DNA from: a virus
Taxonomy: Duplodnaviria > Caudoviricetes
Strand: one strand, 5' to 3'
Virus record (IMG/VR): IMGVR_UViG_3300028025_003683
Span: 1-54,342 of that record
Length of the DNA stretch: 54,342 bases
A model generated the notes under the pieces. The model made no database searches. It saw only the letters and a program-made list of their open reading frames with translations, and had not been told where the DNA came from. Numbering within the stretch: the first letter of the stretch is position 1; every line of letters begins with the position of its first letter. Below are positions 1,064 to 19,793 of the stretch, one piece after another. Position numbers and translations under genes: made by a program.

Positions 1064-2863
1064 TTGGGCATTTTTAGACGTGAAGCTGACAATCAGCCAC
1101 GCAACTCGAACAACGGCGGCGTTCGCGCTTCATCGCCAGGCGTTCGACCTATCCGCCCTCCTCAGCCAACTCAGTTTACTGACTCGTTTGGTATCGCTTC
1201 TGCTCAGCCAGTTGCGTACAACGCACCACGCGCCCTAACTGCAGCCGCCGTTCAAATCAAGATGAACGACAAAGGCGAGGCTGCTCTATTCAAGAGTCGC
1301 CGTCAGTCTGCATCTTCTGCGTGGCAGAAGGAAGCCTGGGAATACTACGACGCAATCGGTGAAGTGAAGTATGCCTTCAACCTAGTTGCGTCTGTTGTTT
1401 CTCGCATTCGCATTTACGCAGCTAGCGTTGACGACCCAGCCGAGGCACCAGTACCAATTGACAAGTCTACAATCATTGACGAAAAACTTGCTGCTGCTGC
1501 AGCCCGCGCACTTGACCGTCTTGACAGTGCATACGGAGGCCAGGCTGGTCTGCTCAAGGACGCTGCTCTAAACCTTCAGGTTACTGGCGAGTGCTACCTA
1601 GTTCAGGTTCCAGAGCGTATCGGTTCAGGACTTCCAGAAAGCTGGGACATCCGCTCAACTGACGAACTTCAGATTGACCAAAAAGGTAACTACATCATCA
1701 ACCCGCGCCGCGAGATTTCTTCAGGCGGCTCGATGATGTCTTCTGGAAACATCGAAGCGATTGCACTTCCATCTAGCGCATTCATTGGTCGCATTTGGAA
1801 GTCTCACCCGCGCTACTCACAGGAAGCCGACTCGAGCCTCCGCGGTCTACTAGACCTCTGCGCTGAGCTACTTCTACTCAACCGTACCTTCCGTGCTACT
1901 GCACGTTCTCGCCTCAACGCTGGTGCTCTTTACTTGCCAGATGGTTTGTCTGTTGCAGCTAGCCCAGAGGCTGATTACCCTTACGACGAAGACGGCGTCT
2001 ACAACGAGCAGTACAACCCAGAGGAAGCTGCTGACGACTTTGAGGACCAACTCATCGACGCGATGACAACTCCTATCAAGGACGAGGACTCGGCCTCTGC
2101 TGTTGTTCCACTTATCATTCGCGGACCTGCAGACCTTGGTGACAAGATTAAGCAGTTCAAGTTTGAGCGTTCATTCGACCCTGCACTTGCTCAGCGTGCG
2201 GACCGCGTGCTAGAGCGTATTATGCAGGGCCTAGACGTTCCTAAAGACATCGTGACGGGTCTTGCCAACGTTAAGTACTCAAACGCAACTCAGATTGATG
2301 AGAGCCTCTACAAGGCGCACATCGAGCCTCTGATGCTTCTTATTGCAGACGCCCTAACCATCGTTTACCTGCGCCCATACCTAATCTCGATTGGCTACAG
2401 CGAAAGCGAAGTCAACCGAATTGTTATTTGGTATGACCCAAGCCAGGTAACCACTCGCAACGACCGTGCTGCCGACGCAGACGCAGGATTTAACAACCTC
2501 GCTGTCTCATACGACACCTGGCGTCGTGCTCACGGATTCTCGGATAATGATGCTCCAAGCCCAATGGAGCTTGCCCTTCGACTAGTCATCACTAAGGGTG
2601 CCATTACTCCAGAACTAACCGAAGCCATGCTCGCTGCTGTTGCACCTGAGGTCATGGACAAGGTTAGAGGTATTGCTCAGGAGAACTCGGTTGCTCCTGT
2701 TCCACCAGAGATTCAGCAGCTACTCACCGGAGGCCAGCCAGCCGCTGCTCCGGGAGCACCTGCAGCGCCTGCCGCACCAGCAGAGGGAGCACCAGCACCA
2801 ACCCCCGCTCCGGCCCCAACTCCAGCCCCAGCGCCGCCAGGGCTAGCAGAACCTACAGCATAA
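1064..2863 (+). CDS. Portal protein
   Basis: 599 aa following terL; GGGAG RBS before TTG. WQKEAWEYYDAIGEVKYA, LQVTGECYLV and IWYDPS motifs resemble actinophage portals; Pro/Ala-rich tail. Confidence 0.85.
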   Translation: MGIFRREADNQPRNSNNGGVRASSPGVRPIRPPQPTQFTDSFGIASAQPVAYNAPRALTAAAVQIKMNDKGEAALFKSRRQSASSAWQKEAWEYYDAIGEVKYAFNLVASVVSRIRIYAASVDDPAEAPVPIDKSTIIDEKLAAAAARALDRLDSAYGGQAGLLKDAALNLQVTGECYLVQVPERIGSGLPESWDIRSTDELQIDQKGNYIINPRREISSGGSMMSSGNIEAIALPSSAFIGRIWKSHPRYSQEADSSLRGLLDLCAELLLLNRTFRATARSRLNAGALYLPDGLSVAASPEADYPYDEDGVYNEQYNPEEAADDFEDQLIDAMTTPIKDEDSASAVVPLIIRGPADLGDKIKQFKFERSFDPALAQRADRVLERIMQGLDVPKDIVTGLANVKYSNATQIDESLYKAHIEPLMLLIADALTIVYLRPYLISIGYSESEVNRIVIWYDPSQVTTRNDRAADADAGFNNLAVSYDTWRRAHGFSDNDAPSPMELALRLVITKGAITPELTEAMLAAVAPEVMDKVRGIAQENSVAPVPPEIQQLLTGGQPAAAPGAPAAPAAPAEGAPAPTPAPAPTPAPAPPGLAEPTA

Positions 2864-2873
2864 GGAAAACACT

Positions 2874-3377
2874 ATGGACATGATTGAGATGACTGAAGAT
2901 ATGCCAGTCGCAAGCACGAAGGCAGAACTTGCTCAACACCTAGCTAAAGCACTTAGTAGCTCGGTTGTTCTCAAGTTCCTAGCTCAGGGTTATCACTGGA
3001 ACGTTAAGGGCAAGGACTTCTATTCTTTGCACGAACTGTTTGGCGATGTTTACGAAGACATTGACGGCGCTATTGACCCTCTAGCAGAACTTATCCGCAA
3101 GCTCGGATTCGACGCTCCTTACTTCTTGTCTGACTTCCTAGAAATGTCATGCGTAGAAGGTGGACGCCGTCTAAGCAACAACGCAGACGAGATGCTTGTA
3201 TCTCTGCACACAGAAAACAATAAGTTGATTGACGACATCAAGAAGGCTTTCAACTACGCCAGTAACAACGCAAATGAGCAGGGAGTAGCAGATTTCCTAG
3301 CTGGCCGCATTGACATGCACCAGAAGTGGGAATGGCAGCTACGCTCTACCATTGGATTGGATTCAGTAGGATTCTAA
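2874..3377 (+). CDS. dps: Dps family DNA-protection / ferritin-like protein
   Basis: YHWNVKG..F..LHELF...YE......D.LAE.IR.LG Dps signature and C-terminal HQKWEWQL; AAGGA RBS. Confidence 0.9.
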   Translation: MDMIEMTEDMPVASTKAELAQHLAKALSSSVVLKFLAQGYHWNVKGKDFYSLHELFGDVYEDIDGAIDPLAELIRKLGFDAPYFLSDFLEMSCVEGGRRLSNNADEMLVSLHTENNKLIDDIKKAFNYASNNANEQGVADFLAGRIDMHQKWEWQLRSTIGLDSVGF

Positions 3378-17764: not shown

Positions 17765-17881
17765 TACAATTAATGATAGGTGGAGTGCCTCCACGCCATG
17801 TTGCGTGATGAGTCCCTCAGCCTTGACTGTTCACCAATAGGTGCAATCCTGCACTTATTAATTAAAACTGGCCTAAGGAGG
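17765..17881 (+). promoter_or_regulatory. Putative capsid promoter, structured leader and RBS
   Basis: TACAAT 17765-17770; hairpins at 17780-17794 and 17836-17859; AAGGAGG 17875-17881. Confidence 0.6.
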
Positions 17882-17885
17882 TACA

Positions 17886-19793
17886 GTGGACCACATCAAA
17901 TCGCAGCTAGATAACCTGGCTGAGCTTAGTGACGAACAAGTCACCGAGCTTCAGAGCAGCATTATCAGCCAATTTGAGTCGGTCGAGGGTGAAGACCCTA
18001 CTCCTGAGACAGTTGATGTTATGACATCTCTCGCAGATAGTCTTGACACTGTTCGCGGTGAGCTTTCACGTCGCGAGGTACAAGCTGAAGAGCTTGCTGC
18101 CCGCGCAGCTGAGGCGACCGCACGTGTTAAGGGTGCAGAAGATGTTCAAGAAGACGGAGAGGCTATGGCCGACTATACAGAAGAGGATGCTCCAATGGAG
18201 GATGCTCCAGTAGAAGAAGTTCCTACAGAAGAAGTTCCTGCAGAGGAAGTTCCTATGGAAGAGGTTGGCGAAACCCCTGACGAGGAAGACGAAGACAAGT
18301 TGAAGGCTTATTCAGCCGAAAGCTTTGCTTCAGAAACTGAGACAACATCAACTACCGACGGAGAAGGCTCAGAGCTTTCAACCGAAACCGAGGTTTCTGC
18401 AGACGCAGAGCTTTCAGCCGAAGAGACCACCGAAGCAGCTGTTGAAGCTGTCGAGGGCTCAGAGGCATCAACCCAAGAAACATCATCTATTGCTCCAGAA
18501 GAGCAGGAAGAGCAGGCACCCGTGACCGCCGCAGCAGAACAGCCTTTCGAGGCTCCAGCTGACCGTCAGCCTGTAGTTCAGGTAGTCGAGACCGCTCCAG
18601 TGGCAATCACTGCGGGCGCTGACATCCCTGGCTACACAGCCGGCAGCACCATCAACGACATGAGCGAAGTAGCTTCAGCAATGGAGAAGCGCATTCACTC
18701 ACTACGTCGTGTCAACGGTGGAGATGGAGAGCAGCACATCGTTGCATCTATCACCACTCAGTACGGTGAAAACCGCACTCTATCAACCGACGCAGAGTCG
18801 AACTCAGCTAAGATTAACGCTGTTGTTGGCCAGGAGGCACTTGTTGCTTCTGGTGGTCACGCTGCACCTTTCGAGGTTAAGTACGACATCTTCGGTCTTG
18901 GTTCAACCACCAACCGTCCAGTCCGTGACTCGCTTCCTAAGTTCCAGGCTGACCGCGGCGGTATCCGCTTCGTAACTCCACCTAGCTTTGCTTCAGGTGA
19001 CTACGCAAATGCTGTTGGCATTTGGACCGCGGCAACCGACACCTTGCCATACAGCAACACCAAGACCAGCTTGACTGTGACCGCTGCTGCTGAGCAGACC
19101 GTGTCAACTGACGCTGTAACCTTGCAGCTACAGTTCGGTAACCTAATGACCCGTGCGTACCCAGAGCTAATTGCCCGTCACAACGAGCTAGCCCTAGTAC
19201 AGCACGCGCGTGAGGCAGAGCAGAACCTTCTAACCAAGATTGGTGACGCTTCAACCGCAGTAACCACCACCTCGACCATCGGTTTCGGCCGTGACTTCTT
19301 GGTACAGGTTCGTCGTGCAGCAGTTGCTTACCGCTCACGTCACCGCATTGACCCTAAGACTCAGCTAAAGGCGATTATTCCTGCATGGGTATATGACGCT
19401 ATGGCTGCCGACCTCACCTTGGCTATGCCTGGTGACGGCACCCTTGCTGTTTCAGAGTCAGAAATCAACGGCTACCTAGCACTAAGCAACGTAACCCTGA
19501 CCCCATCGCCAGACCTAACCGTCTTCGGTGCTCAGGGTGCGACTGCATTGTTGGAGTTCCCAGACAGCTTTGTCTGGTACCTATTCGCAGAGGGCTCGTT
19601 CTTGTTCCTCGACGGTGGTACTTTGGACCTAGGAATTATCCGCGACAGCACCCTAGTCGGCACCAACGACTACAAGATGTTTGTTGAGACCTTCGAGAAC
19701 GTTGCCTTCGTTGGCATCGAGGCTTTGAAGATTACTTCAACCATCACCGTAGCTGGTACCGCTGCAGCACTTGTAAGCGCTGTAGACTACTAA
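17886..19793 (+). CDS. Major capsid protein (hexamer type) with N-terminal scaffold-like region
   Basis: Strongest RBS in the window. Coiled-coil/acidic N-terminal half, then LVASGG...VRDSLPKFQADRGG...FGNLMTRAYPE...GTLDLGIIRDS...NDY, as in mycobacteriophage cluster B-like capsids. Confidence 0.9.
   Translation: MDHIKSQLDNLAELSDEQVTELQSSIISQFESVEGEDPTPETVDVMTSLADSLDTVRGELSRREVQAEELAARAAEATARVKGAEDVQEDGEAMADYTEEDAPMEDAPVEEVPTEEVPAEEVPMEEVGETPDEEDEDKLKAYSAESFASETETTSTTDGEGSELSTETEVSADAELSAEETTEAAVEAVEGSEASTQETSSIAPEEQEEQAPVTAAAEQPFEAPADRQPVVQVVETAPVAITAGADIPGYTAGSTINDMSEVASAMEKRIHSLRRVNGGDGEQHIVASITTQYGENRTLSTDAESNSAKINAVVGQEALVASGGHAAPFEVKYDIFGLGSTTNRPVRDSLPKFQADRGGIRFVTPPSFASGDYANAVGIWTAATDTLPYSNTKTSLTVTAAAEQTVSTDAVTLQLQFGNLMTRAYPELIARHNELALVQHAREAEQNLLTKIGDASTAVTTTSTIGFGRDFLVQVRRAAVAYRSRHRIDPKTQLKAIIPAWVYDAMAADLTLAMPGDGTLAVSESEINGYLALSNVTLTPSPDLTVFGAQGATALLEFPDSFVWYLFAEGSFLFLDGGTLDLGIIRDSTLVGTNDYKMFVETFENVAFVGIEALKITSTITVAGTAAALVSAVDY

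Follow-up and report, generated by a model that had tools for sequence, protein, structure and literature searches.

Introduction

Much has been published on the proteolytic maturation of the head in T4, the phiKZ-like giant phages, HK97 and the herpesviruses; descriptions of mature head proteins do not extend to the large actinobacteriophage collections and their many freshwater metagenomic relatives. The subject here is a short motif, [LIVM][TV]A[SAG], that recurs in the head proteins encoded by IMG/VR record IMGVR_UViG_3300028025_003683, a complete metagenomic contig of 54,342 nucleotides (the window, which denotes the whole stretch of DNA analysed). Judged from sequence and position, the phage's own prohead protease, whose fold is predicted to be that of assemblin, probably cleaves at the conserved copies of this motif, with the cut expected after the Ala.

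The general consensus of herpesvirus assemblin is (V/L)-x-A|S, and T4 has (L/I)-x-Glu sites and capsid-targeting propeptides; for HK97 we know of no simple cleavage sequence motif. The herpesvirus R and M sites are described as being cut after Ala and before Ser or Thr, the pseudorabies virus (PrV) examples being YLQA-T and VQA-S (PMC4498786). According to an account of SPN3US, phiKZ and T4, a short motif marks where the proteases of these phages cut the portal, the major capsid protein (MCP) and internal proteins, long propeptides being cut repeatedly and the protease cleaving itself; in phiKZ and SPN3US short propeptides measure 20-24 amino acids and self-cleavage takes place on the C-terminal side (PMC10052503). 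Another paper, in which no cleavage motif is given, describes fusions of protease, scaffold and capsid as well as a protein exceeding 4,400 residues, and regards such proteins as 'likely processed' (PMC7302621), and Podgorski et al. report in a preprint that the cleavage site of the actinophage capsid delta domain is not predictable (bioRxiv 10.1101/2022.09.09.507160). A published description of the motif, or of virion N-termini for these phages, was not found in open-access papers or on bioRxiv. Motif-directed head maturation is already known; the present motif, its herpesvirus-like character and its spread in a large actinophage-like clade were not found in the searchable literature.

Results

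The motif is concentrated in the head-module proteins

The contig comes from an uncultured phage of actinobacteria-type lineage and bears its structural module, with the head-assembly genes, all on the + strand. The head genes encode, in order, the portal, a Dps/ferritin-like protein, proteins of 257, 376 and 1464 amino acids, a 465-residue protein containing HExxH, proteins of 929 and 1023 residues, the latter labelled as protease by PHROGs and containing the predicted protease domain, and the MCP of 635 residues; tail genes and some replication genes lie downstream. In the window and in six GenBank relatives the protease gene is located between the portal and MCP genes.

1064..2863 (+): portal gene, 599 amino acids; phrog_776 portal, E 1.6e-103
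14684..17755 (+): 1023-residue protease-scaffold multidomain protein; phrog_859/21470/18402, with domains from the model
17886..19793 (+): MCP gene, 635 amino acids, HK97 fold; phrog_777, E 4.6e-77

Ten head-module proteins (6032 residues) contain 27 copies of [LIVM][TV]A[SAG], compared with 4.8 expected from composition. Shuffling, done 2000 times over whole proteins and 2000 times within local 30-residue blocks, never reached this count, the maximum being 14. The remaining 23 proteins of the window (11043 residues) contain 14 matches against 9.4-10.0 expected, a number reached in 193 and 251 of 2000 shuffles. As the motif had been picked after reading the sequence, 30000 random motifs of the same class sizes were scored on the head proteins; the lowest Poisson p that any of them gave was 2.2e-5, compared with 2.8e-12 for the motif observed. 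Apart from Pro/Thr/Ala linker repeats, the most over-represented tri- and tetrapeptides of the head set include TAA, VAS, ASA, LTA, ALTA and TAAA. Codons at the motif sites differ (Ala is encoded by GCA 11 times, GCT 11, GCG 3 and GCC 2, and six Ser codons occur), indicating that the signal sits in the protein and not in the DNA; a DNA-level repeat or recombination junction was ruled out for the same reason.

An earlier note on this DNA, made from the letters alone, had drawn attention to the motif and listed its copies, all of which are present where it placed them; two further copies, at residue 134 of the 1464-residue protein and residue 398 of the MCP, were not in its list. The composition-controlled comparison of head with other proteins that it proposed as a check is the one reported above, and its outcome agrees with the note's expectation.

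A longer form of the motif recurs in related phages

At the DNA level no near-identical match to GenBank phages was found. By MCP, the nearest GenBank relative is the uncultured Actinomycetia phage DSL-LC01 (70.6% identity), and others that are near include the Microbacterium phages Pumpernickel, Big4 and Zooman, the Arthrobacter phages Atuin and Mimi, and the Gordonia phages Phendrix and GMA2. In IMG/VR, 484 MCP and 591 portal matches were confirmed, and the MCP family comprises 2024 cluster representatives at E up to 0.001. One IMG/VR contig of 4996 bp (L085) encodes, at 709-2505, a portal 100% identical to that of the window over 599 residues, so the same or a nearly identical phage was sampled in a second record.

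The enrichment persists in these relatives. In four GenBank phages the head modules contain 20, 14, 15 and 14 matches against 5.0, 3.8, 3.8 and 3.2 expected, and the remaining genes 8, 10, 2 and 6 against 4.4, 8.6, 5.5 and 5.3. IMG/VR loci anchored on the MCP were also scored; 80 were fetched and 75 counted, since in five (L022, L033, L048, L081 and L084) the regular expression found no MCP open reading frame (ORF). Across the 75 loci, ORFs upstream of the MCP gene contain 565 matches (110.7 expected) and the MCPs 374 (77.5 expected), compared with 191 (193.3 expected) in downstream genes. The excess is more than two-fold in all 54 loci with an upstream expectation above 1, and in 3 of 67 loci downstream.

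The residues around the motif also differ between head and downstream matches (704 and 175 distinct matches, respectively). The preceding residue is Ala in 37% of head and 13% of downstream matches, the following residue is Ala or Gly in 66% and 19%, and the fourth motif position is Ser in 44% and 21%, with Ala (41%) and Gly (15%) also used at this position in the head set. These preferences suggest a fuller motif of roughly [A/S/G/P]-[LIVM]-[TV]-A-[SAG]-[GA]. The six-residue form occurs 17 times in the head proteins of the window (0.32 expected) and twice in the rest (0.55 expected); in the 75 IMG/VR relatives it is found 313 times in upstream head ORFs (6.2 expected), 203 times in MCPs (5.5 expected) and 5 times downstream (12.4 expected). 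Alignments further tolerate Ile or Leu at the second position of the four-residue motif and Cys at the fourth. The core proposed by the earlier note holds; the full motif extends further and tolerates more residues than the note has it, with, numbered around the presumed scissile bond, a small residue at P4, Thr, Val, Ile or Leu at P2, Ser, Ala, Gly or Cys at P1' and Gly or Ala at P2'. A 684-residue tail-fibre-like protein of the window (38013-40067) has five strict matches against 1.2 expected, all of ITAS or ITAG type and located within Thr/Ser-rich stretches; one of the five carries the head-type flank preferences, and the five are regarded as false positives of the four-residue motif.

The motif tends to lie near protein N-termini. 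Across five phages, 14 of 43 head proteins and 8 of 91 others have a motif beginning among their first 70 residues. The window (5 of 10 head proteins, 1 of 23 others) and Phendrix (5 of 10 and 2 of 17, respectively) show this contrast strongly, the remaining three phages weakly. It also persists at considerable divergence. Arthrobacter phage Tank, whose MCP and portal are 27% and 26% identical to those of the window, and cyanophage Pam4 both carry the motif at the aligned N-terminal site of the portal. Their protease proteins contain it too, and in their MCPs two of the sites align. Overall, about 15 copies are conserved, and these lie in variable linkers or leaders.

A predicted assemblin-fold domain is flanked by copies of the motif

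An AlphaFold model of the 1023-residue protein, built with 41 homologs, has a mean pLDDT (predicted local distance difference test) of 60.3, with confident domains at residues 14-105, 170-235, 290-440, 710-785 and 810-1023. In this model residues 284-442 (pLDDT mostly 80-90) form a beta-barrel and are, by fold, a prohead protease domain of the herpesvirus-assemblin/T4-gp21 type. The best match is T4 gp21 (5jbl_A), with Z 10.5 and a root-mean-square deviation of 2.7 over 120 residues, and seven herpesvirus proteases give Z 9.2-7.2 (varicella-zoster virus 9.2, PrV 8.8 and human cytomegalovirus 8.1; also herpes simplex virus 2, Kaposi's sarcoma-associated herpesvirus and Epstein-Barr virus). Foldseek ranks the same T4 gp21 and herpesvirus protease families first, with weak E-values. 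Residues 284-442 have no Pfam or NCBIfam match at E up to 1, S78, S77 and S80 included, and match PHROG families only; Pfam Peptidase_S78 likewise gave no match to the whole protein at E up to 0.01 or to domain pieces at E up to 1. The domain is present in all 41 sequences of the alignment, in which His336 and Ser384, 48 residues apart, are invariant and form a candidate catalytic pair. As modelled, the long protein that contains the protease domain has several further domains and a helical, scaffold-like C-terminal tail.

15533..16009 (+): predicted prohead protease domain, residues 284-442; assemblin/T4 gp21 fold by VIA-align
15482..15493 (+): site LTAA, residues 267-270, just upstream of the protease domain; strict in 28 of 38 sequences (linker residues 255-285)
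16094..16105 (+): site LVAS, residues 471-474, just downstream of the protease domain; strict in 26 of 41 sequences (residues 455-490)
16628..16666 (+): tandem sites MVAG (residue 649) and LVAA (residue 658), at the end of a conserved second domain; motif in 41 of 41 sequences (residues 640-672)
17084..17095 (+): site LTAA, residues 801-804, separating a coiled-coil region from the C-terminal helical domain; one or more strict motifs in 37 of 41 sequences (residues 775-815)

The seven motif matches of this protein start at residues 105, 115, 267, 471, 649, 658 and 801, and each of them is inside or borders on a segment of pLDDT below 50; such segments account for 407 of the 1023 residues. This much of the earlier note's proposal that the motif marks domain boundaries is borne out by the model. 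In 15 control windows placed inside confident domains the motif occurs in 10 of 593 sequence-windows.

The sites differ in how strictly they are kept. At site 267 most of the non-strict sequences have Ile or Leu at P2 and insertions or deletions follow directly after the site; in Atuin a gene boundary falls about 20 residues upstream of its equivalent. By eye, [LIVM][VTIMA]A[SC]G is preceded by an acidic stretch of variable sequence in all listed rows of the region around site 471. At the tandem sites all 41 sequences and all 75 loci have ALVAAGA, which is also present in DSL-LC01, Pumpernickel, Atuin and Phendrix. Lineages differ in the placement of the site near residue 800, which is found either at about 787 or at about 801; retention of the motif while its position drifts is as expected for a cleavage site in a linker. 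Site 115 is kept in 4 of 48. As sites 267 and 471 bracket the protease domain, cleavage at both would release a protease of about 204 residues.

The region that follows (residues 475-661; 16106-16666) is a very conserved second domain with many invariant His, Asp and Ser residues, a match to phrog_18402 'head maturation protease' and pLDDT of 30-50. Residues 474-665 have no Pfam or NCBIfam match. Language-model comparison gave weak leads to Peptidase_S77/S80 and Mu-like_Pro clusters, with a recognition value of 2140 that is below the reliability mark. A tandem duplicated protease is unsupported, hhalign between the two domains giving a probability of 0.3%. The earlier note had LVASG opening a second protease domain; site 471 is indeed there, but the domain whose fold is confirmed is that at 284-442, and a protease identity for the one after the site is not established.

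Conserved sites in the N-terminal extension of the MCP

The MCP has an N-terminal extension of about 320 residues. Its model, of low quality with a mean pLDDT of 53.7, places a spine helix at residues 426-455; the Foldseek matches of this model, all to HK97-fold capsids or encapsulins, are weak and lack usable ranges, so the start of the HK97 fold is not fixed structurally. Residues 1-215 (17886-18530) comprise a long helical segment (residues 2-83, pLDDT 80-90) followed by a disordered, acidic, low-complexity stretch (84-224); the latter, about 130 residues, varies widely in length among relatives. Motif matches are at residues 213, 241, 285, 319 and 398, the four conserved ones being in the last third of the extension and the fifth being kept in 26 of 73 distinct MCPs.

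18522..18533 (+): MCP site VTAA, residue 213, at the end of the acidic region; 59 of 73 distinct MCPs
18606..18617 (+): MCP site ITAG, residue 241; 72 of 73 MCPs
18738..18749 (+): MCP site IVAS, residue 285; 72 of 73 MCPs, not conserved in Tank
18840..18851 (+): MCP site LVAS, residues 319-322; 71 of 73 MCPs, conserved in Tank and Pam4

Site 241 aligns with residue 177 of the Tank MCP and is deleted in Phendrix. Site 319 was also followed in diverse cluster representatives of the family. Here the count relied on an RGG[ILVM] anchor, a MAFFT alignment of 138 representatives having covered the residue-319 window in only 4 sequences; from 150 representatives, 12 shorter than 480 residues were dropped, as were 10 of the remaining 138 with no RGG anchor at least 60 residues from the start, leaving 128. 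A motif 36-38 residues upstream of the anchor is present in strict form in 115 of these 128 and in relaxed form in 119, and the nine exceptions are close variants, with, for example, Gln or Ala at the second motif position. The predicted cut after Ala321 would leave 314 residues, with about 104 of them ahead of the spine helix, a distance similar to that in HK97.

Sites in the portal and other head proteins

Upstream of the protease gene the motif is found in the portal and in several internal head proteins, whose features are as follows.

1235..1246 (+): portal N-terminal site LTAA, residues 58-61; of 83 related loci, 82 keep it at the aligned position
3326..4099 (+): 257-residue head-module protein with no family assigned; motif at residues 43 (nt 3452-3463) and 171 (nt 3836-3847)
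4102..5232 (+): 376-residue head-module protein, likewise with no family assigned; motif at residues 28, 85, 159, 176 and 209 (nt 4183-4194, 4354-4365, 4576-4587, 4627-4638 and 4726-4737)
5379..5390 (+): N-terminal site ITAS, residues 16-19, of the 1464-residue protein (gene 5334-9728); kept in 21 of 33 aligned loci in strict and 27 of 33 in relaxed form
11840..14629 (+): 929-residue protein (phrog_2859 domain, LysM); sites at residues 72 (nt 12053-12064), 183 (nt 12386-12397) and 338 (nt 12851-12862)

The portal site is also present in Pumpernickel (residue 26), Phendrix (39), Tank (16) and Pam4 (14), and thus follows leaders of 11 to 57 residues; a second portal site, at residue 107, is kept in close relatives and absent from Tank. 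In the 257-residue protein site 171 is kept in 15 of 20 aligned loci, and site 43 in 1 of 19 by the strict and 11 of 19 by the relaxed form. The 376-residue protein has five matches against 0.40 expected, and its sites 28, 85, 159, 176 and 209 are kept in 1 of 11, 7 of 16, 13 of 20, 10 of 13 and 7 of 8 of its few aligned homologs. The second match of the 1464-residue protein, at residue 134, is kept in 0 of 38. In Phendrix, three head proteins have motif sites at residues 12, 12 and 20.

Between the portal gene and that of the 257-residue protein is a Dps/ferritin-like gene (2874-3377; PF00210, E 2.9e-16; phrog_3636), directly after the portal and with homologs in 76 fetched loci. As the ORF listed from the GTG at 3326 overlaps it by 52 nucleotides, the true start of the 257-residue protein may be further downstream. 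The 465-residue protein (9800-11197) has HExxH near its C-terminus and sub-threshold zinc-metallopeptidase matches (Pfam ATLF, E 0.033; TIGR04549, E 0.048); homologs were found in 12 fetched loci, and its motif at residue 54 is kept in 0 of 3.

In the 929-residue protein, site 72 is kept in 43 of 74 by the strict and 60 of 74 by the relaxed form, and site 338 in 56 of 80, while site 183 (VTAGG), kept in 14 of 80, is not conserved. The earlier note's observation that ITASG and VTAGG flank an IAWALWGG domain is therefore correct for the window, although the second bracket is not a general feature. The C-terminal half of this protein (13400-14629) is of low complexity and rich in Lys and Ala, with a LysM match at residues 718-772 (E 4.5e-4) and a short unit in about four copies; DKAT, TAGR and GRAP each occur four times against about 0.2 expected for each. 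In most relatives homologs of the 929- and 1023-residue proteins are fused in a single ORF of 1500-2361 residues (for example L009, L010, L015 and L050), whereas the window and four loci (L005, L008, L021 and L080) have split ORFs of roughly 500-1170 and 1000-1040 residues. Other splits are seen in DSL-LC01 (607, 855 and 183 residues) and Atuin (799 and 502 residues).

In relatives, the portal region is directly followed by genes for giant proteins of the head module: 3289 residues in DSL-LC01 (L001, 3957-13826), 3113 in Atuin (L003, 5171-14512), annotated 'DNA helicase', and 2235 in Pumpernickel (L002, 7903-14610). Their motif counts are 4 (clustered in the first 190 residues), 0 and 1, respectively.

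Discussion

The head-specific enrichment of the motif, its conservation, its position and the predicted fold of the neighbouring protease all support the proposal that the conserved copies are, probably, sites at which this prohead protease would cut. The make-up of the motif, across the 704 distinct head matches, agrees with the herpesvirus-type pattern of an aliphatic P3, Ala at P1 and a small P1', on the assumption that the scissile bond follows the Ala; this is where cleavage would most likely fall, as it does with herpesvirus assemblin. The positions of the copies are those of N-terminal propeptides in the portal, capsid and internal proteins, and they flank the protease. The earlier note had drawn the same inference of maturation sites, and it gains from these data; about a third of the matches that the note listed are not conserved, however, and which sites would be used is a prediction. 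The non-conserved matches (residue 134 of the 1464-residue protein, 183 of the 929-residue protein, 54 of the 465-residue protein, 115 of the protease protein and 398 of the MCP) are probably due to chance or structural. The note's wider suggestion, that head proteins are cut into many separate modules, does not hold for the very large proteins: the 1464-residue protein has only its N-terminal site conserved, and the long proteins of Atuin and Pumpernickel have no match and one match.

In the scheme that we propose, the protease would act inside the assembled prohead. It would free itself by cuts at residues 267 and 471, and the scaffold-like part of its precursor would be dismantled by cuts at 649/658 and about 801. 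The portal would lose a leader of about 60 residues, internal proteins would lose short N-terminal propeptides (about 18 residues from the 1464-residue protein, for example), and the 929-, 257- and 376-residue proteins would be cut at a few linkers. The scaffold-like MCP extension of about 320 residues would be cut at 213, 241, 285 and 319, the final cut leaving a mature protein of about 34 kDa with Ser322 as its first residue.

Several points weigh against this interpretation. No proteomic, N-terminal sequence or structural datum was found for any relative, and PDB sequence searches with the window MCP, the protease protein, an MCP profile and the Pam4 MCP gave no related structure. Both AlphaFold models are weak, so 'linker' is in part a reading of low confidence, and helices are modelled, at low confidence, over residues 643-670. 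MCP sites 241, 285 and 319 and protease site 658 lie within generally highly conserved stretches, where conservation of the motif is inseparable from structural conservation. The M-like site (residues ~787-804 of 1023) is about 220 residues from the C-terminus and not a few tens as in herpesviruses. Finally, the relatives are homologous, so that their counts are not independent and speak for the persistence of one feature, not for separate discoveries. The conserved setting of the most invariant copies and the modelled helices would also be compatible with a motif that is left uncleaved in proteins that remain intact, the motif serving either to dock head proteins to the scaffold, the protease or the capsid interior, or as a small-residue packing or turn element at domain ends. 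We consider this unlikely, as it leaves unexplained the bracketing of the protease domain by copies, their occurrence after leaders of very different length, the shift of a site within a variable linker and the match to the P3-P1' preference of the homologous herpesvirus enzyme; the near-absence of the motif from confident domain interiors also speaks against it.

The sites could, in principle, be genuine and be cut by another enzyme. Staphylococcus phage 80alpha uses a host protease, the head module itself encodes the HExxH protein with its sub-threshold metallopeptidase matches, and the second domain of the protease protein (residues 484-648 in this context) is very conserved, rich in invariant His and has weak protease leads. 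Such an arrangement seems improbable, since the assemblin-fold domain is in all 41 sequences and is flanked by sites, while homologs of the HExxH protein are limited to those 12 fetched loci and the motif pattern is seen throughout; for the second domain, neither the recognition value nor the hhalign comparison with the first domain lends support. A chance or compositional artefact of head proteins rich in Ala, Thr, Val and Ser might be suspected from the choice of the motif after the sequence had been read and from the ITAS-type repeats of the tail-fibre-like protein. This explanation retains practically no probability, being refuted by the global and local shuffles, by the random motifs of the same shape, none of which came within seven orders of magnitude, and by the counts of the six-residue form; head matches carry extra flank preferences, and site positions are kept down to 26% identity. 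Cleavage by the phage's own assemblin-fold protease is thus the reading carried forward here.

One close parallel is with herpesvirus assemblin (pUL26/UL80a), which shares the protease fold, the aliphatic-x-Ala | Ser/Thr pattern (here predicted) and a protease placed N-terminal to a scaffold-like part, with a predicted R-like cut after the protease (site 471) and a further cut in the scaffold. Unlike the herpesvirus system, the present one belongs to a tailed phage and has many more predicted substrates, among them the portal, the capsid extension and internal proteins; its motif prefers Thr or Val at P2 and adds a Gly/Ala preference at P2', and its protease protein has extra domains upstream of the protease. 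T4 gp21 is the best structural match, and T4 offers the model of one protease acting on many head proteins at a short motif, with short propeptides on internal proteins; the P1 residue, however, is Glu in T4 and Ala here, and the phage lineage and head gene set differ. Similarly, phiKZ gp175 and SPN3US gp245 resemble the present protease in that the motif occurs in several head proteins and that long propeptides of the portal and MCP have several sites (predicted here), but their motif is A/S/G-x-Glu, they come from Gram-negative jumbo myoviruses and their cuts have been shown by mass spectrometry. The MCP recalls HK97 gp4/gp5 and its delta domain, in that a scaffold-like N-terminal extension on an HK97-fold capsid protein is presumably removed by a protease encoded upstream; the extension is about 320 residues here, compared with about 100 in HK97. 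The fused protease proteins of the relatives (1500-2361 residues) are reminiscent of the actinobacteriophage products that SEA-PHAGES terms 'capsid maturation protease and MuF-like fusion protein'.

HK97-type phages of Actinobacteria, as a very large clade, and at least one cyanophage may have in common a herpesvirus-like aliphatic-x-Ala | small-residue code, a generalization that we put forward only tentatively. If correct, such a code would divide protease 'polyproteins' of 1500-2400 residues into at least six head components, fix the mature ends of internal proteins and of the portal and capsid proteins, and allow virion proteomes to be predicted from sequence. A sequence rule for the cut sites would give testable mature N-termini, such as that of the MCP at Ser322, and would explain fused structural genes as processed precursors. 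It would also offer a phage model with herpesvirus-like protease specificity, directly testable on virions of cultured relatives. On the same condition, the P3/P1/P1' preference shared with assemblin would suggest that this specificity is ancestral to the phage-herpesvirus protease lineage, the Glu-specific T4 and phiKZ enzymes being derived.

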